This document shows, in pieces, positions 12,438 through 44,759 of a stretch of DNA of 64,000 nt; position 1 is the stretch's first letter, and every line of letters begins with the position of its first letter. Under the pieces are notes generated by a model. That model searched no databases. It saw nothing but the letters and a program-made list of their open reading frames with translations, and was not told the DNA's origin. Source of the DNA: a virus. The position numbers were made by a program, and so were the translations under genes. Where the stretch lies: positions 43,937-107,936 of IMG/VR virus record IMGVR_UViG_3300022833_000005; one strand, 5' to 3'.

Positions 12438-12438
12438 T

Positions 12439-15400: not shown

Positions 15401-18400
15401 TTAAACTTGTTCCAGTATCAGAAGAATCAGAATCTACAGGAATTAAAAAATTAGATGAGTTACTAGTAAAACTAAATGGTGTATATAAACAAATTACTAA
15501 AGATAAACCAATCACTGAAGAAGATAAAACTTTTAAAAGAGAGCGTTTAAATATTCTTAAGAAAGCTATTCGTACAGCACAGAGTACATTAAATATTGCT
15601 CCATTAGTTGATGTAATTAGAGTGATGAGGAAAGAAGGAGAGAATATAATTTCTGAATATAAAACTACATATGAAGGAAGACCTGCTACATCAGAAGATT
15701 TTAACGATGAGCAACTATCAGATTTTGCAGATAATATAAGAGAGTATGGTGATTTAGCTTCAGTGTTTCAAGATATAAACATTGACTTAAAGGATTTAAT
15801 TGAAGAAAAAGAAATTCTTGATTTAATACGTGCTGAGGCAGAAGCAATTAAAATATCCCTATATGAAATTAAAGAAATAGCTGGGGAATTTGCAGATAAA
15901 TTTATTGGTGAGAAAAATCTTGTGACTGGTTTAACTAAACCTGAAAAAGTAGTAAAAGGTTTAAGTTCTTTATTTAGAGGATTATCAGATTTACCACTAG
16001 CATCATTAAAACTTTTATACAAACTTGCTAATCGTGCAATGGGCTTTGCTAATGAAGATGCATTACAAGAAGTGAATGACCTTCTCGCAATAAGAGATAA
16101 ACTAAAAGCTAGAGGTGGAGATTTAAGAAAAACTGTACAGCAAATTTATCAAAAATCTAGTGAAGGTGGATTAGTAAATAAATTAATATACAGATATAAA
16201 AGAGAATTCTTCCAAGAGGTTGATGCAAATGCTGAAGAGGGAAGAAGAAGTAGACAGTGGTTAAAAGATAATGTTGATTTAAAAGGATATTCAATTGAAG
16301 CTTCTAAAATATTAAAAGAAAGACTTTCAAAAATTAATAAAACTTATGATGACGGTGAATTAAAAGAAAAACTTTTATTAGATGAAATGAGAAAGTGGGA
16401 TGTTTCTCGAAAAGATTTTAATGGTTTTAATAATTATGTAATCAAAAGACACCCTTTATTAAAATGGGAATCTACTGAATATATTAATCTTGCAAAAGAT
16501 CCAGAGTTATTTGAATTATATAATTATATAACTAAGATAAATAAAAAAGCACAGTCTGTAGGATATATAGAAAATAAAGTGCAATCTACATTTTTACCAT
16601 TTGTAAGAAAGACTATGGCTGAAAGTTTAGCTTGGGATTTTAGTTTAAGTTCAATAAGTAATTTTAGTGATAACTTATCAGTAAGAACTTCAGATGTAGG
16701 ATATGGGAATATTAATGAAGTTACTGGAGAGGTAGAAAATAGTATACCAAAATATTACACTTCAGATTTTACCAAGGGAGAAGATGGTGTAAATGATTAT
16801 TCTGATGTAAGTGAAGATATATTTAAGAACATGATAATGTACATTAACCATATGGAGAAGTACAAATACATGTCTGAAATAGAAGGTCAAATAAAATTAG
16901 TTCGTTCAATAGAAACATTCAAAGATCATTTACAAACTTCAAAATTTAGTAAGGTTGTAATGGATAGTAATGGTAAACCTATTATTGAAAAAGGAAATGC
17001 TGACAATGTAAAAATATTTGATTCATTTTTACAAACTGTTATATATGGTCAAAAATACACTGCTGATAATACAGATATTGCATTAGGTGATGGTTTACTT
17101 ACTAGTATTAAAAAAGGTATCAATTCTGTTGCAGGTAAAGAAGTATATAAAATTGGGGATAAACCTGGAAGTCTATCTCTAATTAAAACTATTGATGCGA
17201 TGAATAGGGCCTTTCAATTAAAGACTTTAGGATTTGAATTTATATCAGGTGCTGTAAATATATTTGGTGGTAACATACAAGTTGCTACTCAGGCAGGAAA
17301 CTACTTTAAAGCAAGAGAGTTTGCTAAAAATGAAATGATGTTAGTTGGTAATCGATTTAAGAACGATGATGAACGAAGTATGTTTATTCAACTTATTGAT
17401 AAATTCATGCCATTAAAAGATGATCCTACTTATGAGAAGATGAAAGCTGCAGGAATGTCTAAACTTACTCAGCAAAACTTTTCTGATATGTTATTTGTAT
17501 TCTTTAGAGAACCTGAACAACATTTAGAAAAAACAATATTCTACACATTGTTAGATAATATGATGGTTGAAGATGGTAAGGTTGTTAGTATTAGGGAGTT
17601 TGTAAAGAATAAATATAAAGATAGGTATAGTTCTGCAAGTAATTTTAGAGATTCTAAACAATCTATAGATGCAGAAATAGAGTCACTTAAAAAAACAAGA
17701 TCTATAAATTCTACTAAAAAATTAGTAGATGGTGAATTAGTTATACCAGGATTAGATTTAAGTAATAGAGAAGAGTTACAGCGTCTAACTAATTTATCAA
17801 GAAGTATTTCTAGAAATGCTACAGGTAACATGACAGATTTTGATACTAGTAGAATGAACATGAGTGTTTGGACTAGATCTATGATGGTGTTTAAAGGTTG
17901 GATTCCTAAACTTTTAGATACTAGATTTGGAGAATTTAGAAAGATAGCTGATGATTTCTCTGTAGAAATTGGAGAAGATGGAATGACTACTGGAGATAAA
18001 TATGATGTTGGTAGAGTTAGGTTATTTGGATCCTTTTTAAGTTTAAATATTGCTAAAACAGTTAAAGAAATAAATGATGTACTTATTGTAAATGATTCTG
18101 GTATTCTTAAATTAGATGAAATGTATGCACAATATGCACAATCTTATTTTGAAAGAACAGGTGATGAGTTACAAATGACTGCAGAAGATTTCAATGACTT
18201 AATAAGAAACAATTTACGTAATCAACTTAAAGAACTTGCAATTCTTATGTCATTATTTGGAGCCACCTTAGCTTTAGGGTTTATGGAACCAGAAGATGAT
18301 GAAGATAAAGCACATAAAAACTTTTATAGATTTGCACAAAGAGTTGTAGATAAATTTACAAGTGAATTGATGTTCTTCTATAATCCTATAGAAATGAAAA

Positions 18401-18663
18401 ACATCCTAGATGGGGGAATATTCCCTGCCATAGGATTAATAACAGATGTAGGAAGATTTACAGATCATTTCTTTATGGAGACTACAGGATTAGATTGGTC
18501 AAACACAGATCTTACAGCAGTTGAAGTGAGAAAAAAAGCTCAACCAATAAAGAATTTAATGAAAATGCTTCCTGTAAGTAAATCATTAGTTACATATCTT
18601 GCTATATCCAACTCTAAATTTGCTAAAGAGTTTGATGTAACTATTCAGAAACAAAGTAGATAA
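12439..18663 (+). CDS. Large virion ejection/polyvalent protein with PD-(D/E)XK nuclease-like and degenerate metallopeptidase-like domains
   Basis: Start moved to the ATG at 12439 (MATCPNK), right after the RNAP stop; RILEVQSDLFQ motif (~13255); TEEMVH (~14180); AGTIDLLIV...IYDWK...YNVQL nuclease motif (~15095-15230); long helical C-terminus. Confidence 0.7.
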   Translation: MATCPNKNLESWKLLISSRGDDMAYYLWDKYDGEVPNAEMTPAIVKFNLKALDILNSDKAIQVFEKGKKNGWDINKILTELQVPKEQKQIILSKNISTREEIITSLLAENSFTVEVNVGVDGNKFKSDVSPENIKSISLEEYNSIKVEEIENGTNKLKPVKNGMYFKNKKGDTFFEPTVVENSSFYRDLTVPGGANYTENEISTPAITPNIKSHAQFSTDNGIGWFRSDEQLNDLTDETKFRPVYSLDKIVSYIEISTGLEYNKNSKKQNTRRILEVQSDLFQKGRDKKSLVNSMPEKGNYKMFKYGDFNYFTVDNKFFKQPLEDKNDPYGVPKEIEINKSEYDLVVNKEIKENNFLQLLNKKGNWVNFFIQSIVQDSVKKGYEKVLFPTGETAAKVEGHQTLVEDIAKWDKIINKDYKTWKLEAIDNNLDEINENVWKGNIIYAKNKKEELKTQGIEKLKPIEAFYTNTVTNILNKLYDVNEITDEHGNTWNEVTLDQSSVQGQNILLQKENQSSNKTKASQEILSKVKLIIKRMGIDIQTMIEYSKNNPNVDVTNVNGLADLINGIIAISEGKEDIALTEEMVHIATAIIEQKNPKLITEMISKVDRFKVYKETFEQYKDIAAYQLPNGKPNIRKIKKEAVDKLIADLIINDGQSFSELTEEENRSIIRRMWDAITDWFRGQHKASNIDLFQESATRIILGNFEGNVLDLTSKEVYYQATDAQKKLQQKIIETRESLRKIESKEPINPLLMDEEGATSYYEVLVDGEYQRVTKRVTDRVKAWYTQRFGKNKDWTAQEKRDNEVKRQLGVDFHNYFEEIHDRFFNTDGTRRENFGPRPNIQDATKDAVYTKLEKYYVDLISQFSRDGKNPLVFSEVMVYDPKLKEAGTIDLLIVDQDGTSHIYDWKFMSVAQGAEDVAWYKQGAYNVQLGRYKDILRSAYGVKQIGKNRAVPIIMDLQRENPKDLKTNLKIKGIKIGSVNPKEIQDLKLVPVSEESESTGIKKLDELLVKLNGVYKQITKDKPITEEDKTFKRERLNILKKAIRTAQSTLNIAPLVDVIRVMRKEGENIISEYKTTYEGRPATSEDFNDEQLSDFADNIREYGDLASVFQDINIDLKDLIEEKEILDLIRAEAEAIKISLYEIKEIAGEFADKFIGEKNLVTGLTKPEKVVKGLSSLFRGLSDLPLASLKLLYKLANRAMGFANEDALQEVNDLLAIRDKLKARGGDLRKTVQQIYQKSSEGGLVNKLIYRYKREFFQEVDANAEEGRRSRQWLKDNVDLKGYSIEASKILKERLSKINKTYDDGELKEKLLLDEMRKWDVSRKDFNGFNNYVIKRHPLLKWESTEYINLAKDPELFELYNYITKINKKAQSVGYIENKVQSTFLPFVRKTMAESLAWDFSLSSISNFSDNLSVRTSDVGYGNINEVTGEVENSIPKYYTSDFTKGEDGVNDYSDVSEDIFKNMIMYINHMEKYKYMSEIEGQIKLVRSIETFKDHLQTSKFSKVVMDSNGKPIIEKGNADNVKIFDSFLQTVIYGQKYTADNTDIALGDGLLTSIKKGINSVAGKEVYKIGDKPGSLSLIKTIDAMNRAFQLKTLGFEFISGAVNIFGGNIQVATQAGNYFKAREFAKNEMMLVGNRFKNDDERSMFIQLIDKFMPLKDDPTYEKMKAAGMSKLTQQNFSDMLFVFFREPEQHLEKTIFYTLLDNMMVEDGKVVSIREFVKNKYKDRYSSASNFRDSKQSIDAEIESLKKTRSINSTKKLVDGELVIPGLDLSNREELQRLTNLSRSISRNATGNMTDFDTSRMNMSVWTRSMMVFKGWIPKLLDTRFGEFRKIADDFSVEIGEDGMTTGDKYDVGRVRLFGSFLSLNIAKTVKEINDVLIVNDSGILKLDEMYAQYAQSYFERTGDELQMTAEDFNDLIRNNLRNQLKELAILMSLFGATLALGFMEPEDDEDKAHKNFYRFAQRVVDKFTSELMFFYNPIEMKNILDGGIFPAIGLITDVGRFTDHFFMETTGLDWSNTDLTAVEVRKKAQPIKNLMKMLPVSKSLVTYLAISNSKFAKEFDVTIQKQSR

Positions 18664-19164: not shown

Positions 19165-22100
19165 ATGAACAAATTAGTTTGTGCAGCAAATCCTTGCCCA
19201 ATTATACTTAGTAGTGCATGTGTCTTTTACGAAGGCCCTAATTTATTATGTGCTAATATTTTAACAAATCAAACTGTTGAAGAAGCTCTTAAGAATATTG
19301 ATGCTCTCTTGTGTGCTGGTAAAGGTTTAGATGGTTCATCTGGTACATCTGGTACATCTGGTACAAGTGGCACAACTGGTACCAGTGGAACGTCTGCTAC
19401 ATCAGGAACATCAGGTACAAGTGGTACAAGCGGAACATCAGGTACAAGTGGTACAACAGGTACATCAGGTAGTAGTGGAACATCAGCTACAAGTGGAACA
19501 TCAGGTACGTCAGGTACTAGTGGTACATCAGGTACATCTGGTACAACAGGTACAAGTGGTACAACAGGTACAAGCGGTACTTCTGCTACTAGTGGTACAA
19601 GTGGAACAACAGGTACATCAGGTACATCTGGTACAACAGGTACGAGTGGTACAACAGGTACAAGCGGTACTTCTGCTACTAGTGGTACAAGTGCTACATC
19701 TGGCACTAGTGGTAGCTCTGGATATGATGGAGATAAATATAAAACAACATCTACTGATTCATTTTTATTATGCAATCCAGGATGTTTAACAGTTGATCTA
19801 GGATTAGCATTCACTCCTGGTCAGTCTATTGTTGTAGCTCATGATATAAATAATTATCAAGAATGTACAATAATAACATACAACTCTGCTAATGGAGAAT
19901 TATGTTTTACAGAACCAATAACTTGTGTAGGAAGTGGTACATATAGTGAATGGTATATAAATTTAGATGGATCAACCGGTGGTGATGGGTCTTCTGGTAC
20001 TAGTGGTACTAGTGGAACAACAGGTACTAGTGGTACGTCTGGTACAAGTGGTACTAGTGGTACATCAGGTACAACAGGTACAAGTGGTACAAGTGGTACA
20101 TCTGGTACAAGTGGTACGACAGGTACATCTGGTACGACAGGTACAAGCGGAACATCTGCTACCAGTGGAACAACAGGTACAAGTGGTACAACAGGTACAA
20201 GTGGTAGTAGTGGCACAACAGGTACAAGTGGTACAAGTAGTACATCAGGTAGCAGTGGTACAGTTGGTACATCTGGTACATCTGGTACATCAGCTACATC
20301 TGGTACAAGTGGTACATCAGGTAGTAGTGGTACAACTGGTACTAGTGGTACAACAGGTACAACAGGTACATCTGGTACAAGTGGATTAAATGGTTCGTCT
20401 GGAGCAGCAATAGCAAATTGGTATGCAAGTTTTTCTGATAGCACTACTCAATCTCTTTCAGCATCAAATGTTTCAACAGCAATTACATTTAATACAATAG
20501 AATTAAACAATGGAGTTGCCTTAGATTTTAATCAAGAAATAAGATATCCACATGCAGGAATATATGAAGTAGGTTATTCTTTACAACTAAAGCAATCTGG
20601 AAGTGAAACTTCGTATTCTAGCGTTGATGTATTTTTAAGAAAAAATGGTAATGACATTATAAGGAAAGATAGATTAATTGATATTGAACCAGGAGGTAGG
20701 GTTAATTTACCTTTTGCTTCATTTATATTGAATTTAGAAGCAAATGATTATTTAGAATTAATGTTTGCTTCTACTAATCCAAATATTCAAATTTCAGCAG
20801 TTGCAAGTTCATCTTCTCCTTATACTAAACCTGCTGCACCTTCAGTTATATTTATTACAAAACAAATAGGAGTGTCCGTAGGATCAACTTCTGGAATATC
20901 AGGTACAACAGGTACAAGTGGTACAAGTGGTACATCTGGTACAAGTGGCACAACTGGTACAAGTGGCACAACTGGTACATCTGGTACAAGTGGTACAAGT
21001 GGTACAAGTGGTACTTCAGGACTTCTTGGATCCGCAGCAGTTCCTTTAGTTATTACTGGTACTAATATTTCTATCAATCAATCTAGCTCAATTGCTAATG
21101 GTTTTTTAAGCTCAACAGATTGGAACAATTTTAATAATAAAGCAAACACAGCTTCTCCTACATTTACAGGAACAGTTGGCGGTATAACAAAAGAAATGGT
21201 AGGACTTGGAAACGTAGACAATTTGCCAAGTCTTTTTATAGAAAACGCAACTGGAGGTAGCCAATCAACACAAAGAGTTGGAGCGGGTACTGCAACAGGA
21301 AGTCAATCTACTATAAGTGGTGGTGAAAATAATAATTCAAGTGGCGATTATTCAACAGTTGGTGGTGGTCGTACTAATATTTCGAGTGGTAATTATTCAA
21401 CAGTTGGTGGTGGTCGTATTAATACTTCGAGTAGTTTTTATTCAACACTTAGCGGTGGTCTTAGTAATATTTCGAGTGCTAATTATTCAACAGTTGGTGG
21501 TGGTCAGACTAGTACTGCGAGTGGTTTTTATTCAACAGTTAGCGGTGGTTATATGAATGTTGCAAGTAACACTAACTCTACAGTAAGTGGAGGGGTTAGC
21601 AATACAGCAAGTGGTGGTTATTCAACAATAAGCGGTGGTAAATCTAATACAGCATCAGCTGGTCTTTCTTCAATACTAGGTGGTGCCTATAACAACACAT
21701 CAACATTTGTTAACTCACACATTATAGGTAGTAATATAATAGCATCTGTAGCAAATACTACTTTCGTTGAAGACTTATCTATTAAGAATATTCCAATTGG
21801 CTCAACTTTAGAGGTTGGAGCAAACAATGTCTTGATAGCGGGTTCAGCGGGTGGAGCAAGTCTTTTTGAAGAAAACGCAACAGGAGGAGTTGGTTCAACA
21901 CAAAGAGTTGGTTCGGGTACAGCATCAGGTAATACTTCAACAGTTAGTGGTGGAGATACTAACATAGCATCAGGTGATAGCTCAACAGTTGGTGGTGGTA
22001 TAGCGAACACAGCATCAGATAATAAATCTACAGTTGGTGGTGGAAGTAATAATCAAGCTACGGGTAGTTATTCTACAATTGGTGGTGGTAAGAACAACGC

Positions 22101-22710
22101 AGCTAGTGCATTCAGTAGTTTTATGGGTACTACTAAGGGTTCTACGGTAAGTGGAGGTGGAAATAATACCGCAGGTGGTGTCGGGGGTAATTCGGGCTAT
22201 GAAACAATTGGCGGTGGACATCATAATATAGCAAGTGGGGATGTGTCTACCATTAGTGGTGGAGATACTAACATAGCATCAGGTGATAGCTCAACAGTTG
22301 GTGGTGGTTGGAATAACACAACAAGTACTCGATTTACAGTAATAGCTGGTGGTGGTATAAATACTGCAAGTGCTCCTTACGGAGTAGTAAGTGGAGGTAA
22401 GGACAATATAGTAAGTGGTAATCATTCTACAATAAGCGGTGGTCGTAATAATACTGCGAGTAGTTTTTATTCAACAGTTGGTGGTGGTTTTAGTAATATT
22501 TCGAGTGCTAATTATTCTTCAATAACGGGTGGAAAATTAAACAACACATCAACATTTGCTAACTCACACATTATAGGTAGTAATATAACTTCTAACAGAA
22601 TAAATACTACATTTGTACAGAATTTATCAATTACAACTATTCCAACAGCAAGTGCGGGATTACCTTCGGGTTCAGTTTGGAGTAACGGAGGGGTTTTAAA
22701 TATAGTATAA
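19165..22710 (+). CDS. Fibre/appendage protein: (Gly-Thr-Ser)n collagen-like stalks, C1q/BclA-CTD-like domain, two STVxGG-N beta-solenoid blocks
   Basis: Three Gly-X-Y Ser/Thr tracts; WYASF...GIYEVGYSLQ...LEANDYLEL domain (~20420-20860); 14-aa STV(S/G)GGxxNxAS repeats. Confidence 0.75.
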   Translation: MNKLVCAANPCPIILSSACVFYEGPNLLCANILTNQTVEEALKNIDALLCAGKGLDGSSGTSGTSGTSGTTGTSGTSATSGTSGTSGTSGTSGTSGTTGTSGSSGTSATSGTSGTSGTSGTSGTSGTTGTSGTTGTSGTSATSGTSGTTGTSGTSGTTGTSGTTGTSGTSATSGTSATSGTSGSSGYDGDKYKTTSTDSFLLCNPGCLTVDLGLAFTPGQSIVVAHDINNYQECTIITYNSANGELCFTEPITCVGSGTYSEWYINLDGSTGGDGSSGTSGTSGTTGTSGTSGTSGTSGTSGTTGTSGTSGTSGTSGTTGTSGTTGTSGTSATSGTTGTSGTTGTSGSSGTTGTSGTSSTSGSSGTVGTSGTSGTSATSGTSGTSGSSGTTGTSGTTGTTGTSGTSGLNGSSGAAIANWYASFSDSTTQSLSASNVSTAITFNTIELNNGVALDFNQEIRYPHAGIYEVGYSLQLKQSGSETSYSSVDVFLRKNGNDIIRKDRLIDIEPGGRVNLPFASFILNLEANDYLELMFASTNPNIQISAVASSSSPYTKPAAPSVIFITKQIGVSVGSTSGISGTTGTSGTSGTSGTSGTTGTSGTTGTSGTSGTSGTSGTSGLLGSAAVPLVITGTNISINQSSSIANGFLSSTDWNNFNNKANTASPTFTGTVGGITKEMVGLGNVDNLPSLFIENATGGSQSTQRVGAGTATGSQSTISGGENNNSSGDYSTVGGGRTNISSGNYSTVGGGRINTSSSFYSTLSGGLSNISSANYSTVGGGQTSTASGFYSTVSGGYMNVASNTNSTVSGGVSNTASGGYSTISGGKSNTASAGLSSILGGAYNNTSTFVNSHIIGSNIIASVANTTFVEDLSIKNIPIGSTLEVGANNVLIAGSAGGASLFEENATGGVGSTQRVGSGTASGNTSTVSGGDTNIASGDSSTVGGGIANTASDNKSTVGGGSNNQATGSYSTIGGGKNNAASAFSSFMGTTKGSTVSGGGNNTAGGVGGNSGYETIGGGHHNIASGDVSTISGGDTNIASGDSSTVGGGWNNTTSTRFTVIAGGGINTASAPYGVVSGGKDNIVSGNHSTISGGRNNTASSFYSTVGGGFSNISSANYSSITGGKLNNTSTFANSHIIGSNITSNRINTTFVQNLSITTIPTASAGLPSGSVWSNGGVLNIV
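19333..19723 (+). repeat. 9-bp-period tandem repeat encoding (GTS/GTT/ATS)n, block 1
   Basis: ggtacaagt/ggtacatct/ggaacatca units. Confidence 0.95.
19987..20403 (+). repeat. 9-bp-period tandem repeat encoding (GTS/GTT)n, block 2
   Basis: Same triplet units. Confidence 0.95.
20881..21021 (+). repeat. 9-bp-period tandem repeat encoding (GTS/GTT)n, block 3
   Basis: Same triplet units. Confidence 0.95.
21944..22308 (+). repeat. Exact 56-bp direct repeat (21944-21999 and 22253-22308) within the solenoid repeats
   Basis: ttagtggtggagatactaacatagcatcaggtgatagctcaacagttggtggtggt occurs twice. Confidence 0.9.
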
Positions 22711-23131: not shown

Positions 23132-23950
23132 ATGAATAAAAAAATCTTTTACAATTCTTCTTTGCCAAGGGCGGGTTCGACTTTAATATCTAATATTATT
23201 GCTCAAAACCCTAACTTTTATTGCACTCCAACTTCGGGTGTTTCTGATTATCTTTTAGGCAATAGAGCGACTTTTATTAATTCCCAACCTATTAAGGCAC
23301 AAAATAAAGAAAATATGGAAAAATCATTCTTTAATTATGCTAAATTTGGTATTCAAGGGTATTTTAGTGAATTAACTGACAAGCAGTTAATACTTGACAA
23401 AAGTAGAGATTGGGCGATTAATTATAGGTTGTTAGATGAAATCTATGCAAATCCTAAAATTATTTGTATGGTTAGAGATGTTAGGGCAATCTATTCTTCT
23501 ATGGAGAAAAACTTTAGAAAAAATCCTCACAAAGAAAATCATATACAAAATGTATCACAGTTAGTTGGAACTACTTTAGACAAAAGAGTTGATATTTGGG
23601 CAGATGGTTTACCCGTAGGTGTTGCAATGGATAGGTTAAAAGATATTTTTCAACAAGGGCTAGATAAACATATTTTATTTATTCGCTATGAAGATTTAAT
23701 GTCAAACCCAAAAGAAACAATGAATAGGGTGTATGACTATTTTCTTATTGATAGATTTGAACATTCATTTGATAAAATAGAACAATTAACACAAGAAGAT
23801 GATGGCGTTCACGGAATATATGGCGACCATAAATTAAGGCAAAAATTTAATATGTTACCAAATGATTTTGAAGAAATTTTAGGAATAGAATTATCTGAAA
23901 AAATTAAAAATACTTATCAGTGGTTTTTTAATAAATTCTACACGCTATGA
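23132..23950 (+). CDS. PAPS-dependent sulfotransferase
   Basis: 5'-PSB loop SSLPRAGST, 3'-PB motif MVRDVRAIYSS, and RYEDL. Confidence 0.88.
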   Translation: MNKKIFYNSSLPRAGSTLISNIIAQNPNFYCTPTSGVSDYLLGNRATFINSQPIKAQNKENMEKSFFNYAKFGIQGYFSELTDKQLILDKSRDWAINYRLLDEIYANPKIICMVRDVRAIYSSMEKNFRKNPHKENHIQNVSQLVGTTLDKRVDIWADGLPVGVAMDRLKDIFQQGLDKHILFIRYEDLMSNPKETMNRVYDYFLIDRFEHSFDKIEQLTQEDDGVHGIYGDHKLRQKFNMLPNDFEEILGIELSEKIKNTYQWFFNKFYTL

Positions 23951-24396
23951 TATATTGGTTCACAGGGCAACCATCCCACGGAAAAACAGTTTTAGCAAAT
24001 TTGTTAAAAGATATATTTAAGGACAAAAAAGTGTTTCACGTTGACGGAGATGATTTAAGAGCCTTAACTTTGAATAAGGACTATTCCAAACAAGGTAGGT
24101 TAGATAATGTAAGAGGTGCGCAAAAAATAGCCCATTATCTACACAACGAAGGTTGTACGGTGGTGGTTTCATTAGTTTCTCCTTACAGAGAGCAAAGAGA
24201 ACAGTTAAAGAGTGTTTTAGGGGAAAACATTATTGAAATATTTATACACACAACAGAAGCAAGAGAAAGAGATTGTTATAGGGTTGAAGACTATGAAAAA
24301 CCGTTAGAAAACTTTATTGATATTGATACGACTTTTGATACACCCGAACAATCACTTAAAAAAATAATAGAAAAATGTCAGATAGAAAATATTTAG
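23947..24396 (+). CDS. cysC: Adenylyl-sulfate (APS) kinase
   Basis: IYWFTGQPSHGKT P-loop, DGDDLR, VSLVSPY, YEKP motifs. Confidence 0.88.
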   Translation: MIYWFTGQPSHGKTVLANLLKDIFKDKKVFHVDGDDLRALTLNKDYSKQGRLDNVRGAQKIAHYLHNEGCTVVVSLVSPYREQREQLKSVLGENIIEIFIHTTEARERDCYRVEDYEKPLENFIDIDTTFDTPEQSLKKIIEKCQIENI

Positions 24397-24779
24397 TCCA
24401 ATCCGCAACTCAGTCTTCATTTAGTGAAGTAAAATTCTCTATGTATATTGGAAGATGGCAACCTTTTCACACAGGTCATAGATGGTTAATCGACCAAAGA
24501 TTAGACGAGGGAAAAAATATCTTAATTTGTATTAGAGATATAGCACCCGATGAAAAGAATCCTTGGACAGCAGAAGAGGTTACATTGAACTTAAATAAAG
24601 TATTAAAGGATTTAATTGAAGAGGGTCGTGTTAAAATTATAACTATTCCCGACATAGAATCTATTAATATTGGTAGGGGTGTTGGATATGATATTATAGA
24701 ACACTTACCACCTAATGAAATTAAAGAAGTATCAGCTACTAAAATTAGAAATCAAATGAAAAAAGATGGTAAATTATAA
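24375..24779 (+). CDS. HIGH-superfamily nucleotidyltransferase (cytidylyltransferase-like; candidate minimal ATP sulfurylase)
   Basis: IGRWQPFHTGH and VSATKIR motifs; operonic with cysC. Confidence 0.75.
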   Translation: MSDRKYLVQSATQSSFSEVKFSMYIGRWQPFHTGHRWLIDQRLDEGKNILICIRDIAPDEKNPWTAEEVTLNLNKVLKDLIEEGRVKIITIPDIESINIGRGVGYDIIEHLPPNEIKEVSATKIRNQMKKDGKL

Positions 24780-25010: not shown

Positions 25011-28000
25011 TCAAAATCTAAACCATTTTTCTGAAATTAATAAATTAATTTTTTCTATTACTTGAACTGATTTAATACTCCTATGGCATTCAAAATGTCT
25101 AGGAGTATTTTTATGTTCAGGGCACCAATTCCAATCTCCCTTATCGAATGTATGTTCAGTTTTATTCCAACAACTGTTACATACAGATAAATCTTTTACT
25201 CTATAGCATTTAAATTCATGACTTTCTTCAGTGAAGTTTGATATCATAATAACTTCTTTATCTAAGGCCCAAGCTAACCAACTCAATCCTGAAGACAATC
25301 CTATAAAGAATTCACTTTGTGTGATCCATTCTATAGTGCTTTCTAATGATTTATTCTGAAGAGGTTCACAATTATCAAAAGGATTATCTTCTAATGAAAC
25401 ATTCTTAATAATATAGCCTTCTTTGTGCAAGTAATTAATTACATCTTGCCATCCTTCTCTGGTCCAATATTTACATCCTGCTGTACTATTTGTAGCTATT
25501 GTAACTAGTTTATAGTGTGCTTTATTTCCTGATTTATATATTTTTGGTTTTATTTCTACATAACTCAATCCTAATATATTTGTAGCTGTTTTTTGTAATG
25601 GTATTGTATTTGGTAATTCAGGTTCTTTATTAGTATTATAGAACCATCCTATTTTATACATTGCATATAAATTAGGTGCAACCTCTCCAGGTTTAATAAA
25701 TTCTAATTCAGGATATTCATTTTCAAATAAGAAATTTTTATAAGTGCTAACAATCATCTTACATTTATGCTTTTTACGAAACTCTTCAACATAGGGTATC
25801 CATGCAATTGTATCTCCTAAAGAAGAGCTATCAAAAGCTATGTAAACACGTTCATTTTCTAAATTAAATTCTTTAGTATATACAACCTTTCCATCTTCTG
25901 TCTTTATTATTGTTTTCCAGGCAGTATAATATTCTCTATCAAGTCTTATCCAAGAATTAACACCTATTGTGTTATTATATATAAGTTTTTCACCATCATA
26001 CATTTCAACAGTAAATTTTTTATTAGATGTACCTTTTATTTCTAAATACGGTTTACCTACAAAATGTTGTATAACATAAAAGTCTTCTTTAATTTTATTT
26101 TGCATCACATCAATATTTAATACTCTGTTATATAAACTTTTATGATTGCCTCCAAATGTAATATTTGTATTATTACTAGGAACTTCATAGACATCTTTAC
26201 TATCTAATGCTTTTTTTAATTGATCATCTATGTTTGATAATCCAACATTTTCAATTGCATGTATGTACTTTGTAAACATATTTCCATACTGAGGTAAGTT
26301 GCGTGCAATTATTGGAAGATTATAAGATATAGCTTCTCTCAACACTAGAGGATTGCATTCCCAAGTGCTATTAAACATAAATACATCTGCAGCTAACATA
26401 AATAAATGTGTATCTGATCTTTCTCCCCATATGTGTACATTAGAAGGTACATCTTTCATAATTGGTTCCCAATATTCACTAAAGTTTACTGCTTGATTAC
26501 CTACAAAATGAAAATCTACATTTGGAAAGCTTCTTGCTAGTTCTACACCTTCTCCCTGATTTTTTCCTTTAGTCCACAGTCCTATATTTACTACATGTTT
26601 TCTATTATTATCAAAACCTAATTCATATTTTGCTTCAACTTTTGATTTTAGATTATTTACAACAGGTTCTATTGGAAATTCAATTACGTCTTTGTAAGAA
26701 GGTGTATCTTTAAATGTTTTTAAATGATAAGAAGTGCAAAAAGCATAAGCTTCTGGATGATATTTTTTTTCTGTATCTGGAGAAAAAGATATGTTATGAC
26801 ATGTTTCTATAATTTTCCATGTTCTATCGTTTGCATACAATAAGTTAAGTACTTCTGCTGATCCATTTCCTAAGTGTTCAGACATTTCATCTATGTGTAC
26901 AATATCAATTTTGTTATTTCTTATAATATCAATGAGTTCTGTTTTATCTTCTCCTAATGTATAGATGTTTTTTACTATTTCTCTTATTTGATTTTTCTGT
27001 ACAACATACTCGTCACTGTAATTAGCCCACTCTACTACATAAATATTAAATCCAACTAATGATTTTATTCTTCTAAGTAAGAATTCAGGCATACCACCTG
27101 TAGATAAATGTGGAGCAATGAATAAAACTTTTTTTGAAAGTTGGTTTATTGTGTCTTGCATTATACTAATGTCTTTTTCTCCATGAAAAGCTAATAGATG
27201 TTCTTCTTTTGCAGGTGTGGCAACCCATTCTGATATATGATTTACCTCACCCGTAAATTTAAAACTACTTACATCTACTTTACCCTTATAGTTTATATAC
27301 ATTAGAGGAAGTCCTATGTGGATATTATGTTTCCACAATAACACATTCATTATAGTTTCTTCGTGATAAGGGGCATACAATTGTGGGTTTTTCACTATAG
27401 CTGGATGACTGCACATCCAAGACCATTCATCAATAAAATTACGAGAATTCTGACCAGCTACAAAGTAACCACTTTGTCTATACTTATTTCTAACTGATTG
27501 ATCTACATTAAAAAGTTTACATGCAGCATGTTCTAAACTTTCATGTAAATCATCTCTAGTTTCTACTCCACCACGACCATTAATAAATAAATAATCATAT
27601 ACACCTTCTACAAAGTATGGATGTGTAGCTTCATTAGGTAGATAATCAAATATAGTATCTATATATTTAGTTACTACAGTGTCTGAATCTATATAAGCTA
27701 TTGTCAAAGCATGCTTATCTAAAGCATCTGCAACAATTAAAGGTCTTTGTATTAGTAATTTATAAATCTGAGAGTTATTTCTATCTAAATAGTTATTTTT
27801 TTCTATGTGTACACCTTCTAAATTCCATTCAATTGTTTTGTATGCACCTTTTATTTTTATATCAGAGTTTATCATATACACTATTACAGGTATATTGCTA
27901 ACATTATTGATACTTTTTACAGCCATTGTTACTATTTCACTATAAGATGCATTTGCATATAATATGTATGATTTTTCCAATTTCATATGTATATACGTAT

Positions 28001-28487
28001 AATACCCATAATACTCGTTAGAGAAAATACATTTAAGTTTTGGATAACGTTCTGTCATTACATCTGGTGTAAGATCAAGTTGATGGTGAGTTTCGTGTAT
28101 ATTCCCTTCATGCTCTCCCTGCTCCATTTCATAAGGAATAGCAACTAAACAGTCTTTACCTAATTCAATAATTTTATCAATTAATTCTATAGCTTGATCT
28201 TTATGTAAATGTTCTAAAACATCTCCTAGAATAATAAAATCATAGTCTACTATAGAGAACTCAAGTATGTCTTTACAATATACATTATCATACTTTTTGA
28301 TTAACCCATATTTATAGATGTAAGGACTATATATCTCCACTGCATCTATATTATAGCTTTCTGATTCTAATAAATCTGCGTAAGTTCCTATACCAGGACC
28401 TACATCTAATAGTCTTTTATGAGTTGGGACATTGTCTTGAAACCACTGTTTTACTTCAGTTTTAAATAAATAAAAGCTAATAGGCAT
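25011..28487 (-). CDS. Multidomain glycan-modifying enzyme: SAM methyltransferase + GT-A + GT4 (GT-B) + TibC/Aah-like autotransporter heptosyltransferase
   Basis: LDVGPGIG/GDVLEH; YIDSD; PHLSTGGMP and ECNPLVLREA; SSLGDTIAW, GLSSGLSWLAW and CNSC...CP...FEC. Start set to ATG 28487 because the track's TTG start lies within a promoter box. Confidence 0.82.
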   Translation of the reverse strand: MPISFYLFKTEVKQWFQDNVPTHKRLLDVGPGIGTYADLLESESYNIDAVEIYSPYIYKYGLIKKYDNVYCKDILEFSIVDYDFIILGDVLEHLHKDQAIELIDKIIELGKDCLVAIPYEMEQGEHEGNIHETHHQLDLTPDVMTERYPKLKCIFSNEYYGYYTYIHMKLEKSYILYANASYSEIVTMAVKSINNVSNIPVIVYMINSDIKIKGAYKTIEWNLEGVHIEKNNYLDRNNSQIYKLLIQRPLIVADALDKHALTIAYIDSDTVVTKYIDTIFDYLPNEATHPYFVEGVYDYLFINGRGGVETRDDLHESLEHAACKLFNVDQSVRNKYRQSGYFVAGQNSRNFIDEWSWMCSHPAIVKNPQLYAPYHEETIMNVLLWKHNIHIGLPLMYINYKGKVDVSSFKFTGEVNHISEWVATPAKEEHLLAFHGEKDISIMQDTINQLSKKVLFIAPHLSTGGMPEFLLRRIKSLVGFNIYVVEWANYSDEYVVQKNQIREIVKNIYTLGEDKTELIDIIRNNKIDIVHIDEMSEHLGNGSAEVLNLLYANDRTWKIIETCHNISFSPDTEKKYHPEAYAFCTSYHLKTFKDTPSYKDVIEFPIEPVVNNLKSKVEAKYELGFDNNRKHVVNIGLWTKGKNQGEGVELARSFPNVDFHFVGNQAVNFSEYWEPIMKDVPSNVHIWGERSDTHLFMLAADVFMFNSTWECNPLVLREAISYNLPIIARNLPQYGNMFTKYIHAIENVGLSNIDDQLKKALDSKDVYEVPSNNTNITFGGNHKSLYNRVLNIDVMQNKIKEDFYVIQHFVGKPYLEIKGTSNKKFTVEMYDGEKLIYNNTIGVNSWIRLDREYYTAWKTIIKTEDGKVVYTKEFNLENERVYIAFDSSSLGDTIAWIPYVEEFRKKHKCKMIVSTYKNFLFENEYPELEFIKPGEVAPNLYAMYKIGWFYNTNKEPELPNTIPLQKTATNILGLSYVEIKPKIYKSGNKAHYKLVTIATNSTAGCKYWTREGWQDVINYLHKEGYIIKNVSLEDNPFDNCEPLQNKSLESTIEWITQSEFFIGLSSGLSWLAWALDKEVIMISNFTEESHEFKCYRVKDLSVCNSCWNKTEHTFDKGDWNWCPEHKNTPRHFECHRSIKSVQVIEKINLLISEKWFRF

Positions 28488-28505
28488 AATCTTTGATTTT
28501 AAATA

Positions 28506-28513
28506 CAAATGTA
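28506..28513 (-). promoter_or_regulatory. -7 box (TACATTTG) for the multidomain GT
   Basis: TAnnTTTG on the minus strand, 18 nt before the ATG. Confidence 0.55.
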
Positions 28514-30602: not shown

Positions 30603-30610
30603 TACTTTTG
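30603..30610 (+). promoter_or_regulatory. -7 box (TACTTTTG) upstream of the poly-Thr/GT cassette
   Basis: TAnnTTTG 25 nt upstream of ATG 30636. Confidence 0.55.
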
Positions 30611-30635
30611 TAATATATACTAAAAATAAAATAAA

Positions 30636-30770
30636 ATGGCTGTACCTTCTAAACAAATAAGTTGGGGAGCAACAGAAAACTTGTTATGGAATATTTCTAA
30701 ACAATTAGAAAGATTAATACAAGTAACTGGAACCCCAGCAACAACAACAACTACTACAACAGTAGTATAG
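30636..30770 (+). CDS. 44-aa mini-protein with C-terminal poly-Thr tail (not in ORF track)
   Basis: MAVPSKQISWGATENLLWNISKQLERLIQVTGTPATTTTTTTVV*; A-rich leader and promoter box. Confidence 0.75.
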   Translation: MAVPSKQISWGATENLLWNISKQLERLIQVTGTPATTTTTTTVV

Positions 30771-30776
30771 TAACTA

Positions 30777-30791
30777 GTCGCAAATTGCGAC
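30777..30791. repeat. Perfect 7-1-7 palindrome GTCGCAAATTGCGAC
   Basis: Seen directly in the intergenic gap. Confidence 0.8.
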
Positions 30792-30812
30792 CACAAAACC
30801 ACCAACTACATA

Positions 30813-31832
30813 ATGAAAGACTTAAAATTTATTTGTGCACAGCCAGATGATATATACTATACATGGCAAGTACATCTTTGGTTAGAAAGTTTAAAAGAGA
30901 TAGGTCAAATAAAGAATGCTATAGTTCTAGTATTTATACCTGCATATAGACCATTCAGTGACAAATGGCAAAAGATTCAAGATCTTTATCCTGATGCTGA
31001 ATTTAACTTTTATAAAGATGAAGAGAATGAAGTGGGTAAACTACTTTCAATATACATTCCTATACTTAGACCTTGGTTACTTTGTAAGTATTTCAAAGAA
31101 AATCCAGCAATGTCTGATAAAGCTGTATTTTATTGTGATAGTGATATTTTATTTACAGACAAATTTAATATAGAACAATTTATAGAAGATGAAGTTTGTT
31201 ATTTATCTGATACAAATAGCTATATAAATGCTAATTATTTTGATAGTAAAGTGAATCAGGTGTTACCTGAAAAACTTGAAGAGTATAAAAATAAAGATGT
31301 TCTTTCTGAAATAGCAAATATTATAGGAATAACTAGAAAGATTTGTGAAGATCATAATGATCATTCTGGAGGAGCTCAGTATCTTCTTAAGAATATAGAT
31401 CATACATTTTGGAGTAAAGTGATGAATGATTGTATTCTAATAAGAACATATTTACAACAAGTAAATAGAGAATTCTTTAAAACTGAAAACGATGGATACC
31501 AATCATGGTGTGCAGATATGTGGGCAGTTCTTTGGAATTTATGGATGAGAGAGCAAGAAACTAAAGTGGTTCCTGAATTAGCATTTGCATGGGGTCCAGA
31601 TCCTATAGTTAAACTAGATACACATACTATATATCACAATGCTGGTATTATAGGAACAGAACAACAAGGAATGCCCTGTTTTTACAAAGGTAAATATCAT
31701 TCTGGAATAGATCCTACAAAGGACCCTCATTTAGATGTAGTCTTGAATGATGAAAAAACTAAAAATTATTGCACTTGGTATTATGCCAAAGCATTAGATA
31801 ATATAAAAAATAAATATAACCTTAATTACTAA
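30813..31832 (+). CDS. GT-A fold glycosyltransferase, candidate protein O-glycosyltransferase (GT95/GT96-like motifs)
   Basis: YYTWQ, YIPILRP, FYCDSD (DxD), WCADMWA, IYHN motifs. Confidence 0.65.
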   Translation: MKDLKFICAQPDDIYYTWQVHLWLESLKEIGQIKNAIVLVFIPAYRPFSDKWQKIQDLYPDAEFNFYKDEENEVGKLLSIYIPILRPWLLCKYFKENPAMSDKAVFYCDSDILFTDKFNIEQFIEDEVCYLSDTNSYINANYFDSKVNQVLPEKLEEYKNKDVLSEIANIIGITRKICEDHNDHSGGAQYLLKNIDHTFWSKVMNDCILIRTYLQQVNREFFKTENDGYQSWCADMWAVLWNLWMREQETKVVPELAFAWGPDPIVKLDTHTIYHNAGIIGTEQQGMPCFYKGKYHSGIDPTKDPHLDVVLNDEKTKNYCTWYYAKALDNIKNKYNLNY

Positions 31833-31850
31833 CCCTTTAATTATAAACAA

Positions 31851-32030
31851 ATGGGAAGCCCAATTGACAAACGTCCATTAAAAGCTTTTGTTAGATTCGA
31901 TGGATCTGGCAGAGTAGTACCAAGTAGCTTAGTTCTACGAAGAAATAAACCTAAAGTAGGAAAATGGCAAGAAATTGTAGCATATGAATGTTGCAATCCT
32001 ACCACTACTACAACTACCACTACAGTGTAA
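31851..32030 (+). CDS. 59-aa mini-protein with C-terminal poly-Thr tail (not in ORF track)
   Basis: MGSPIDKRPLKAFVRFDGSGRVVPSSLVLRRNKPKVGKWQEIVAYECCNPTTTTTTTTV*; Thr run uses mixed codons. Confidence 0.78.
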   Translation: MGSPIDKRPLKAFVRFDGSGRVVPSSLVLRRNKPKVGKWQEIVAYECCNPTTTTTTTTV

Positions 32031-32049: not shown

Positions 32050-32078
32050 AGGGTCAAGAGTTAATTCTTTTGATCCTA
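32050..32078 (+). terminator. Stem-loop downstream of the poly-Thr/GT cassette
   Basis: gggtcaagag...cttttgatcc inverted repeat with G-U pairs; no strong U-tract. Confidence 0.35.
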
Positions 32079-33484: not shown

Positions 33485-34129
33485 TTACATTTGCTTTAAT
33501 TTATTACCCCAAGTAGAAATACCACTTGCGTGATCTAAATAGTATTGCCATTCTTCTGGTATAGATGTTACATCTAAATACCAGGGTGTATGTTTAATAC
33601 AATAAGGTTTATCAAGTCTAATAGCATCATAAGAAAATACTGAGTGTGGTTTGTAGAGAGCAAATGTAGTATCTACATGAGCTTCCCAACCATACTCATT
33701 TTCTTTTTCCCAATATTTTGATTCATGGGTATGTGCTTGTATTCCTATTTCAGTATTAGGTAAGTCTTCTATATCTAATGAAAACCCTATTTTAAATGCA
33801 CCTGATTTATCTAAAACATTTATCATAACATCCAACCAATCTGAAGGTACATTATCATATGTACAATCTGGATCTGCTACAATAAACATACCTTCTCTTA
33901 AGTGATCAATTGATGCATCCCATGCAACATAAGGTCCACTGTTGTTTTTTGAATAATGAACAATTTCAGGTATTGTCTTATACCATTCTAATAAAGGAGG
34001 ATAAGTAGAAGATTGATCCAATATATGGATTTCTTCCACCCTAACCTCTTTTCTTAAAAATTCTATAGTAGCTTTAAGTGTAGTTAATAGATTTCTATTT
34101 ACTATTATTGCTTTTACTAACATACACAT
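33485..34129 (-). CDS. Glycosyltransferase family 2-like protein
   Basis: IVNRN...ILDQSSTYPPL...ADPD...DTTFALY. Confidence 0.7.
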   Translation of the reverse strand: MCMLVKAIIVNRNLLTTLKATIEFLRKEVRVEEIHILDQSSTYPPLLEWYKTIPEIVHYSKNNSGPYVAWDASIDHLREGMFIVADPDCTYDNVPSDWLDVMINVLDKSGAFKIGFSLDIEDLPNTEIGIQAHTHESKYWEKENEYGWEAHVDTTFALYKPHSVFSYDAIRLDKPYCIKHTPWYLDVTSIPEEWQYYLDHASGISTWGNKLKQM

Positions 34130-34865
34130 CTAACATTTTTTGATAATCTTTTTGCCAAGCAGGAACTAAATCAATATCTCCTGTAGGTATTTTACCTGCT
34201 AATCTTAATCCTTCTATGTGTGCTGAATGTCTTTGTATGATGTTTGGTTTAATTTCATCATCTGTACCTTGGCCAGATTGATGATAACCTCTACCACCCC
34301 ACATATAAAACCAAGAAGCTTCTGAATCAGGCATTTTAGCATCAATAACAAATTGTCTACCTAAAGCATGAATTCTACTAGTAAGTGTTGTATCACCCCC
34401 AGCGTTCTCCAGAGGGCTTTTCCCGATCTCTTCCCAAACTTTCTTACTATATACTATTCCTGAATTACCAATGCCTGTAATGTTAGTAATTGATGGTTCG
34501 TTATAGAAAATACCTGTTTCCCAATGAATAATATTAGTGTCAGCTTTCCAAAATTTAGCAACATTAGATAAATGATTAGATAAAGCTACATCATCATCAT
34601 CCCAAACAGCAATAAGTCCATCTTTACATCTTTCAATAGCATAGTTTTCTTTTTCACCTATTGTTTTAAATGTTTCATTAAGATTATATATCTTTACTTG
34701 AGGATGATCAAATACTAATTTTTGTTGTGGGTAATCATTTACTATAATTAACTCACATCTATCTTTAGGATAATCTTGTATTAGAAAACTATGTAGGGCT
34801 TCCACTAATGTGTCAACCCTTCCATATGTTATACATTTACAAGATATAAATGGTAAAATTTGCAT
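34095..34865 (-). CDS. Glycosyltransferase family 2 protein
   Basis: CITYGR...SFLIQDY...IIVND...VWDDDD. Confidence 0.8.
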   Translation of the reverse strand: MQILPFISCKCITYGRVDTLVEALHSFLIQDYPKDRCELIIVNDYPQQKLVFDHPQVKIYNLNETFKTIGEKENYAIERCKDGLIAVWDDDDVALSNHLSNVAKFWKADTNIIHWETGIFYNEPSITNITGIGNSGIVYSKKVWEEIGKSPLENAGGDTTLTSRIHALGRQFVIDAKMPDSEASWFYMWGGRGYHQSGQGTDDEIKPNIIQRHSAHIEGLRLAGKIPTGDIDLVPAWQKDYQKMLDVYVSKSNNSK

Positions 34866-43915: not shown

Positions 43916-44759
43916 CTATATCTAATATATTTAACTCTTTTTGAGTGTATAACTTTAAAATCTTATAATAAAGCCTAATTTGTTTCTTAGCCTCTATAAA
44001 ATCTCCTTTATTTGATTTCAAATAAGCTTGAAATACAGCTTTAGTAAATTGATAATCTGTCATATCTAAATGCATATTATCTTTACACCAAGCTTGTCCA
44101 ACTCTATAAGCTCCAGAAACTCCGTCTGAACTATCTCCAATTACTATTTGAGATGCAATTGCTAGTCTACTTTCTTTCTTAGATATATTTTTAAATTCAC
44201 CTAATATTTCACCATAGCTTCTATAGTTATAATAAGGAACATCAGGGCAATTATAAAATACATCTTTATCAATAGAGGATACTACACAATTACCTTCACT
44301 TAGAATCATAGCATCATAAACATAATCATCAGCTTCAGCTCCATGAGAAGGAATAGCTTCTAATTCTTCTAACATATAATCTTTAATAATAGGAAGCAGT
44401 GGACTTTTGATAGTTTTTGCCCTGTTAATTTTGTAATTTGGAAACACTTTATATCTAAAGTTATTCTTACCTGCTACAAAAATATATGTTTTCTGTATGT
44501 TAAACCATTCTTCTACATTATTTTGGATCTCTTGAAGTTTAGTTCTAGTTCTATATTTAGCTTCTTCTAATTGTTCAATCTCAGTAGGGAATTCTATTAA
44601 AGAATCTTCAGGGAAATATGTAGCAAAATACATAATACTATCTGCATCAATTATCAATACTCTTTTAGTATCATCAAATTTAACAGGAGCCCCTTTAACA
44701 GATTTAGTAATTATATCAGCTAATTCTACATTACCTTCTCGTTTTATACCAGCTATCAT
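43890..44759 (-). CDS. 5'-3' exonuclease / flap endonuclease (T5 D15/T7 gp6-like)
   Basis: IIDADS, EADD, SIDKD, GDSSD acidic motifs. Confidence 0.85.
   Translation of the reverse strand: MIAGIKREGNVELADIITKSVKGAPVKFDDTKRVLIIDADSIMYFATYFPEDSLIEFPTEIEQLEEAKYRTRTKLQEIQNNVEEWFNIQKTYIFVAGKNNFRYKVFPNYKINRAKTIKSPLLPIIKDYMLEELEAIPSHGAEADDYVYDAMILSEGNCVVSSIDKDVFYNCPDVPYYNYRSYGEILGEFKNISKKESRLAIASQIVIGDSSDGVSGAYRVGQAWCKDNMHLDMTDYQFTKAVFQAYLKSNKGDFIEAKKQIRLYYKILKLYTQKELNILDIDEHKENNN

Follow-up and report, generated by a model that had tools for sequence, protein, structure and literature searches.

In the genome of a crAss-like phage from salt-lake metagenomes we identified a three-gene cassette in which the gene of a GT-A type glycosyltransferase is bracketed by two small open reading frames (mini-ORFs A and B) whose products end in pure threonine (Thr) runs. 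Taken together, the evidence laid out below makes it probable that this enzyme glycosylates Thr runs on the tagged proteins of its own phage and thereby provides the virion with a glycan coat. The analysed stretch, hereafter the window, comprises 64,000 nt (positions 43,937 to 107,936) of the 107,936-bp IMG/VR record IMGVR_UViG_3300022833_000005. All three genes are located on the plus strand, mini-ORF A at 30636-30770 (44 aa), the glycosyltransferase gene at 30813-31832 (339 aa) and mini-ORF B at 31851-32030 (59 aa), exactly as given in a first-pass annotation. In mini-protein A, a T7 tail (codons 30741-30761) follows a conserved module of 35 aa that contains a W.ISKQLE helix motif, and the C-terminus reads PATTTTTTTVV; in mini-protein B the conserved module measures 50 aa, and with its T8 tail (codons 32001-32024) the protein ends in eight Thr followed by Val (CCNPTTTTTTTTV). 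A six-frame scan of the entire window showed these two tails to be its only runs of ≥5 Thr, and 1.06 Mb of control viral DNA contained one run of six Thr (T6) in total, so that two Thr tails only 1.2 kb apart are far beyond chance. Both tails are encoded by a mixture of Thr codons (ACA/ACT in A, ACC/ACT/ACA in B), and the two bodies gave no cross-match at E = 10; the earlier description of unrelated bodies with tails of mixed codons was thus confirmed on both points. Pfam and PHROG profile searches with mini-ORFs A and B matched no family.

To follow the cassette in related viruses we used a lineage set of 80 loci with 63-82% enzyme identity, in 76 of which the enzyme gene was recognizable. 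A poly-Thr ORF was found in 74 of these 76 loci and never on the strand opposite to the enzyme. Such an ORF is located ≤150 nt upstream of the enzyme gene in 51 loci and ≤150 nt downstream in 49, with 37 loci showing both arrangements. Compared with the window copies, body A has a ratio of nonsynonymous to synonymous differences (pN/pS) of 0.33 and body B one of 0.56, at a pS of about 0.7, which is near saturation. By this measure both mini-ORFs are real, conserved genes on whose bodies purifying selection acts. Selection on the tag itself is indicated by the mixed Thr codons and by the run length: 156 of the 211 runs of ≥6 Thr in the relatives form a peak at exactly 7 residues. Most of them have Pro on the N-terminal side and VAP, AAP or ATP on the C-terminal side, which gives the unit P-T7-(V/A)AP. 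As far as can be read from these sequences, the length of the Thr run is tuned to seven.

The association of tag and enzyme extends well beyond this lineage. With family members ≤35% identical to the window enzyme and to each other as queries, Thr-run genes were found in 21 of 24 divergent loci, a set that includes near-duplicates and represents an estimated dozen or so independent lineages. The proteins encoded there range from 138 to 1447 aa with up to 20 runs, and their genes mostly end at the start of the enzyme gene. One locus (L323) carries two copies of the enzyme family (2512-3495 and 5974-6963) flanking an 836-aa Thr-run protein. In the reverse direction we sampled 118 viral loci chosen only for seven consecutive Thr codons, together with 116 control loci. 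The enzyme family was present in 6 of the T7 loci, three of them from the window's own lineage, and in none of the controls (Fisher p = 0.03); it was always adjacent to the Thr run and on the same strand.

Among annotated phages, a tblastn search located the enzyme in 77 records, mostly of Firmicutes phages. The gene lies within head and tail modules and not in replication modules. In phiFL1A it is the next gene after the major tail gene, and capsid and tail proteins both end in Thr runs. The same two proteins end in Thr runs in iLp84, where a protein with 34% Thr is encoded beside the enzyme. Regarding whole genomes, T6 counts are 28 in the genome studied here, 18 in iLp84, 5 in phiFL1A and 15 in Chryseobacterium phage MA9V-3, in every case on the strand of the enzyme, whereas CL2, Abouo, phiS11, BG3P, Streptococcus phage 93 and phiEf11 have none. 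A search of the whole records of these six genomes, with a positive control included, found no enzyme; T6 runs are thus present in 4 of 4 enzyme-positive and 0 of 6 enzyme-negative matched genomes (exact p = 1/210). The comparison is sharpest between the Lactobacillus phages iLp84 and CL2, whose capsids are 98% identical: capsid and tail proteins of iLp84 end in T7-SK, while those of CL2 have no Thr runs. The slot after the capsid gene holds a Thr-rich protein and the enzyme in iLp84 (L003:3620-4879) and a 59-aa Ig-like Big_2 protein in CL2 (L352:7107-7286). From the lineage loci to the divergent loci and the matched genomes, the tag appears and disappears with the enzyme family, a co-occurrence that the first-pass annotation had put forward as a check for aquatic Bacteroidota phages. 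For phiEf11 it has been described that the tail protein runs at 28-30 kDa instead of the predicted 21.5 kDa and that the head protein forms two bands (PMC5221750). We considered these gel anomalies as indirect support for glycosylation and rejected them, as phiEf11 has neither the enzyme nor a Thr run; the phage served as a negative control instead. The cultured Bacteroidota phage MA9V-3 (PV245944.1) encodes the closest annotated homolog (33.5% identity); its T6 runs are found at five places in the genome, including genes adjoining the enzyme, and the phage is a ready experimental model.

The enzyme itself matches the profile phrog_4417, which has no functional annotation, over the full length (E = 7.8e-54, residues 4-332 against profile positions 1-292 of 293). 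A Pfam search of the 339-aa protein gave nothing at E ≤ 1, a Pfam search of 63 family members gave nothing at E ≤ 0.01 except one weak GT34 match, and PDB sequence searches with the enzyme and with the profile of alignment A1 gave nothing meaningful. The family comprises 764 representatives (clusters at 50% identity). Alignment A1, with 63 sequences of 31-49% identity, was used both to assess residue conservation and as input for an AlphaFold2 (AF2) model. This model reached a predicted local distance difference test score (pLDDT) of 97.4 and a predicted template modelling score (pTM) of 0.94, with the whole chain as one compact soluble domain; a single-sequence model with a pLDDT of 39 was discarded. 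Foldseek yielded 221 matches at E ≤ 1e-3, the listed top matches being GT-A enzymes, with E values of about 1e-6 to 1e-5 for the nearest folds. In VIA-align the nearest folds were glycogenin (Z 14.4, 237 residues), Skp1 alpha-galactosyltransferase (Z 14.0) and LgtC (Z 13.9), followed by WbbM (Z 13.4), UGGT and GlyE (both Z 13.0). Both comparisons place the fold nearest to the retaining GT8/GT6/GT24 group, and the modelled enzyme is probably retaining as well.

Residues Y81, D109, D111, Y137, F258, H275, K292 and Y324 are invariant in the 63 sequences. D109 and D111 form the DxD motif (D109-S-D111, encoded at 31137-31145) at the end of model strand E104-108. All four motifs noted at first reading were found again, as YYTWQ, YIPxxRP, DSD and WCADMW, and are conserved across the family. 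The best fold matches are GT8 enzymes, and the invariant H275 is a candidate for the C-terminal metal-binding His of this group; the Pfam models for GT8, GT6 and GT24 do not match the enzyme, so that assignment to the GT8 family by sequence is not supported. In other proteins the family is fused to GT2, GT6, GlcNAc-T, O-fucosyltransferase (O-FucT) and methyltransferase domains. Fold and fusion partners together indicate a real glycosyltransferase of glycan-building contexts, and on the strength of the AF2 model, Foldseek and VIA-align the 339-aa protein is a real GT-A enzyme, as had been claimed.

The bodies of the tagged proteins recur in the relatives as at least four short types of N-terminal module. 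Module A is marked by the helix motif named above, and a third type appears A-like by eye. Module B (RFDGSGR...KPKVGKW.EI.AYECC) has 14 invariant positions common to mini and long forms (alignment A2), among them C47 and C48 immediately before the Thr run; a complex prediction of module B as a homotrimer scored 0.02, with the module's own fold uncertain. The fourth type is a 21-aa Cys-rich N-terminus, which is followed by long (Thr-Ser)n repeats instead of pure Thr runs and then by Fib_succ_major (L047:1405-1860, L049:2307-2774, L052:237-2765). Of all poly-Thr ORFs in the relatives, 132 of 184 stop ≤10 residues after the last Thr run, and in the others the run leads into a C-terminal domain, roughly 86-600 aa in length. 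Where recognizable, these domains are of the display type: Fib_succ_major (up to 6.5e-70), leucine-rich repeats (LRR) and DUF285. Given these architectures of module, Thr run and display domain, the description of poly-Thr as a tail holds for the window, while in many relatives the run is an internal linker. The mini-protein bodies are reusable N-terminal modules, presumably for attachment or assembly.

In the whole genome only six proteins contain Thr runs, all encoded on one strand. The genome is marked by a P22-type portal, a Crass_capsid major capsid protein, tail ring proteins 1 and 2 and a muzzle protein. Besides the two mini-proteins, the carriers are a 376-aa protein encoded three genes after the major capsid gene and ending in T7-AP, a 117-aa protein ending in T7-SL, a 255-aa protein with five Thr runs, and the muzzle protein itself (PF25731, 1969 aa), again with five Thr runs. 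A weak indication connects the 376-aa carrier with the crAss auxiliary capsid protein; a PDB sequence search with this carrier found nothing. At the level of genes we therefore find what is expected for phage virion O-glycosylation, namely a phage glycosyltransferase together with Thr tails or linkers on the post-capsid 376-aa, 117-aa, 255-aa and muzzle proteins. Judged from sequence, the data support poly-Thr as a portable tag on unrelated proteins (capsid, tail tube, muzzle and small proteins) of unrelated phages. Of the portable glycosylation tag suggested at first reading, the portability and the tracking of the enzyme family hold; glycosylation itself is still a proposal. Separate from these carriers is a collagen-repeat tail fibre encoded at 19165-22710 on the plus strand of the window (PF01391, 2e-34). 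With 36% Ser+Thr but without pure Thr runs, it ranks second in Thr content among the phage's proteins of ≥100 aa and is a possible glycan acceptor.

In the mechanism that we favour, a soluble, metal- and DxD-dependent, GT8-like and probably retaining enzyme would be made late in infection and would move a sugar from a host nucleotide-sugar to the hydroxyl groups of the Thr runs in the host cytoplasm. Its substrates would be all proteins with the P-T7-(V/A)AP type of unit, i.e. the two mini-proteins and the 376-aa, 117-aa, 255-aa and muzzle proteins, and the particle would acquire mucin-like O-glycans as a coat or as whiskers, which nearby glycosyltransferases and sulfation genes may extend and decorate. 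The mini-proteins of this phage would bear only a glycosylatable stub on a module of the attachment or assembly type. We infer that Thr is the direct acceptor, and the same applies to the type of sugar and the site of the mini-proteins. A wider version is possible but considerably more tentative: one enzyme family would read the seven-Thr tag with its Pro and (V/A)AP brackets as a portable signal, Bacteroidota and Firmicutes phages would graft this tag on any particle protein, and crAss-like aquatic phages would place it also on free-standing stubs of 40-90 aa that display nothing but the glycan, possibly sulfated through the adjacent PAPS and sulfotransferase genes, which would amount to a sulfomucin-like coat.

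Several observations weigh against the proposed glycosylation of Thr runs. A literature search gave no description of the enzyme family, of poly-Thr phage tags or of chemical evidence for glycosylation by any member. The nearest solved folds belong for the most part to enzymes that lengthen glycans instead of starting them on protein, so the fold gives no acceptor specificity, and the placement of the mini-proteins on the virion is an assumption of ours. Three divergent loci (L325, L326 and L328) have the enzyme without a Thr run within 6 kb, and 112 of the 118 sampled viral T7 loci have no member of the enzyme family nearby. Finally, some loci in the co-occurrence sets are near-duplicates, and capsid homology was the criterion for choosing the negatives, so that independent events are fewer than the raw counts.

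The predominance of glycan-extending folds (LgtC, XXYLT1, GlyE, Skp1 Gat1 and WbbM) is what one would expect if the enzyme were an extender in a poly-Thr pathway, with a host or phage enzyme setting the first sugar and the enzyme studied here adding a later, probably alpha-linked one. The presence of ≥5 other domains of glycosyltransferase type within 12 kb in this phage and the fusions to other glycosyltransferase domains elsewhere point the same way. Yet iLp84 (39 kb) has tags and enzyme but no other recognizable glycosyltransferase, so that the enzyme should be able to start a glycan unless a host enzyme does so, and in the loci examined it is this family that directly abuts the Thr-run genes. 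A host initiator would be compatible with iLp84. We regard the extender role as unlikely but worth keeping in mind. More remote is the idea that the Thr runs are simply unmodified flexible Pro/Thr linkers, with other targets for the enzyme, for example phage DNA or the polysaccharide of the host envelope, and a common ancestry of gene blocks as the source of the association. Pro/Thr linkers do occur without phage enzymes, and the many T7 loci that lack the family would fit. Against it stand the joint gain and loss of enzyme and tags between the near-identical phages iLp84 and CL2, their co-occurrence in unrelated types of Firmicutes and Bacteroidota phages, and the enzyme's position in head and tail instead of replication modules. 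Moreover, a T7 run at the C-terminus with no more than two or three residues behind it has nothing to join and so is not a linker. We give this explanation very little credence.

Two further explanations concern the mini-proteins. They might be free small glycopeptides, secreted in the manner of glycocins or intracellular, made from a unit of promoter, gene A, enzyme gene and gene B, with the Cys-Cys pair of module B in a structural or redox function. Their sizes of 44 and 59 aa, the invariant cysteines just before the Thr run, the cassette's own promoter-like box and local terminator-like hairpin, and its distance of about 40 kb from the structural block would all suit such peptides. But the long proteins of the relatives with Fib_succ_major, LRR and DUF285 start with the same modules, which fits structural modular proteins better than peptide antibiotics, and the window ORFs near the cassette, with their Pfam and PHROG matches, include no gene for a leader peptidase, a transporter or immunity; this origin of the mini-proteins is improbable. 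The long forms with the same modules would also be expected if the mini-ORFs were untranslated remnants of truncated longer genes and the enzyme alone were functional. Against this, the mini forms are the majority of the poly-Thr ORFs, the frames are kept open at saturated synonymous divergence with the pN/pS values given above, and the Thr-run length is held at 7, which leaves the remnant explanation scarcely credible. Glycosylation of the tagged proteins by the phage enzyme therefore stays the reading that we prefer.

Regarding regulatory elements around the cassette, a promoter-like box of the Bacteroidota -7 type, TACTTTTG, is present at 30603-30610 on the plus strand, 25 nt 5' of the ATG of mini-ORF A. 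It fits the motif TAnnTTTG, which recurs in relatives: the motif was found 16-26 nt before the family-A ATG in 16 of 43 distinct upstream regions, compared to about 5% of random 80-nt windows. Across the window the motif is not enriched (99 seen vs about 110 expected). The spacer between mini-ORF A and the enzyme gene contains a perfect palindrome, GTCGCAA-A-TTGCGAC (30777-30791, plus strand), which is local to this phage; of 51 relatives, a single one shows a perfect stem of ≥6 bp at the same place. It is followed by the leader AAACCA(C)CAACTACATA at 30796-30812 (plus strand), immediately 5' of the enzyme ATG. In the relatives (L004-L083) AACCAAC(A)ACTACAT is kept right before this ATG while the remainder of the spacer is variable, and the motif may be a translation-initiation or regulatory element. 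A terminator-like hairpin with an 11-bp stem and a minimum free energy (MFE) of -23 kcal/mol is located 3' of mini-ORF B (32050-32077, plus strand), and four terminator-like sites were counted in the region vs 0.5 expected. A conserved terminator after the last B-type gene of the relatives was considered as well. The initial criterion (MFE ≤ -10 in 90 nt) proved unselective, with 79% of random windows passing, and a proper comparison showed no enrichment (p = 0.68); the claim of terminator conservation was therefore dropped and only the window's own hairpin retained. The public runs containing this genome are salt-lake metagenome DNA only, with no RNA run listed.

Further genes with a possible role in glycan synthesis surround the cassette and are given as context only. 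Two overlapping GT2-like genes on the minus strand (33485-34129 and 34095-34865; PF00535 at 1.3e-4 and 8.8e-9) are possible glycan-extending partners. Another possible partner is a 1165-aa protein in which a methyltransferase domain is fused to a GT1/GT4-like and a GT9 heptosyltransferase-like one (25011-28508, minus strand; PF13489, PF00534 and PF01075), the gene being inverted relative to its neighbours. A sulfation cassette at 23132-24779 on the plus strand consists of a sulfotransferase (PF13469, 2e-17), an APS kinase (PF01583, 7.5e-20) and a small cytidylyltransferase-like protein, and might act on the proposed glycans. Elsewhere in the window, two giant ORFs of 4144 and 2085 aa (3-12437 and 12406-18663, plus strand) lie downstream of the muzzle and tail genes.

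If the proposed glycosylation is true, its breadth is large: the family counts 764 relatives, and the examined loci that link it to the tags come from crAss-like Bacteroidota phages as well as from Firmicutes phages, among them those of enterococci and lactobacilli. Such a coat could change how antibodies recognize a phage, how it adheres to mucus or particles, how stable it is and which host range is measured for it. A fixed seven-Thr unit and one soluble enzyme would also constitute a simple portable glycosylation tag, usable in cytoplasmic glyco-engineering. Cultured carriers exist in iLp84, in Enterococcus phages of the phiFL1A and VPE25 types and in MA9V-3, which makes the proposal directly testable.

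Compared to known systems, the first-pass annotation had likened the enzyme to the plant hydroxyproline arabinosyltransferases (HPAT; GT95, PF23452) and to the peptidyl-serine galactosyltransferase SGT1 (GT96). The resemblance to GT95 was not recovered in profile searches: PF23452 has no match at E ≤ 10 in the phage's own genome or in 10 diverse members of the enzyme family, the DUF7164 profile (PF23741) gave no match, and the relatives of protein P0268 have no precomputed HPAT tag. In structure comparison the enzyme fell among GT-A folds near GT8, several of which act on protein or protein-linked glycans. Among the language-model neighbours of the enzyme are clusters with PF23452-tagged members (10% and 58%; scores 0.96-0.97), and HPATs have been described as GT8-related (PMC4908140), which agrees with the GT8-like fold of the phage enzyme. 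Kinship to GT95/GT96 is thus a lead only. As proposed here for the phage enzyme, the plant enzymes put the first sugar on hydroxy-amino acids of repetitive, Pro-rich extended peptides. They differ in being membrane-anchored in the Golgi or endoplasmic reticulum, while the phage enzyme is soluble according to its model, and in their acceptors, hydroxyproline (Hyp) or the Ser of Ser-Hyp4 as opposed to the candidate acceptor Thr7.

The GT8-type enzymes glycogenin (1zcu), LgtC (1g9r), GlyE (5gvv) and Skp1 alpha-galactosyltransferase (6mw8), and also UGGT (GT24) and GT6, are similar in fold (Z 13-14.4, 214-247 aligned residues, root mean square deviation 3.5-4.1 Å). The phage enzyme shares with them the DxD motif and has, in H275, a conserved late His that may correspond to theirs, and several GT8-type enzymes act on protein or protein-linked glycans; GlyE is an enzyme of serine-rich-repeat adhesin glycosylation. 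On the other hand, sequence identity is only 7-13% and, as stated, no Pfam model of these families matches. The phage enzyme model has extra helical insertions, and the template modelling (TM) score on the query is only 0.4-0.5.

In mucin-type O-glycosylation, polypeptide GalNAc-transferases (GT27) act on Pro/Thr/Ser tandem repeats, and Pro/Thr linkers are also present in secreted bacterial glycoside hydrolases. Dense Thr clusters flanked by Pro and Ala as acceptors and a retaining GT-A enzyme are common to the mucin and the proposed phage system, and the Thr-rich protein iLp84_8 gives a Pfam Mucin score of 8.5e-5, below the cut-off. In contrast to GT27, the enzyme described here is phage-encoded, would act in the cytoplasm and has no lectin domain, and the phage runs are pure Thr of the fixed length 7 and not mixed Pro/Thr/Ser repeats. 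For the chlorovirus PBCV-1 we know of no poly-Thr tag. The PBCV-1 protein A64R acts in glycosylation of the major capsid protein according to the title of entry 2p6w. A64R, too, is encoded by a virus and is a cytoplasmic GT-A enzyme, with a capsid protein as its target; it belongs to another family, and its fold match (Z 11.1) is lower than those to GT8 enzymes.

To our knowledge, phages of Actinobacteria are the only ones for which glycosylation of virions by the phage's own enzymes has been demonstrated. Mycobacteriophage virion glycosylation is reportedly the subject of a study by Freeman et al. (2023, Cell Host Microbe 31:1216). According to two papers citing this work (PMC12619734, PMC13313380), the virions of mycobacteriophages Che8, Corndog and Myrna are glycosylated by phage-encoded glycosyltransferases, with glycans at the C-termini of capsid and tail-tube subunits as a presumed surface shield. 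As described there, that system resembles the one proposed here in the phage-encoded glycosyltransferase, the C-terminal sites on capsid and tail proteins and the presumed glycan shield, which in our case are proposed from gene content. It differs from the present system in that our hosts are Firmicutes and of the Bacteroidota type (crAss-like phage), that the enzyme belongs to an unnamed family without a Pfam entry and is paired with a sharply defined T7 tag, and that tags are also placed on free-standing mini-proteins and on the muzzle protein. While phage virion glycosylation itself is known, the enzyme family, the tag of fixed length and the carrier proteins are new.

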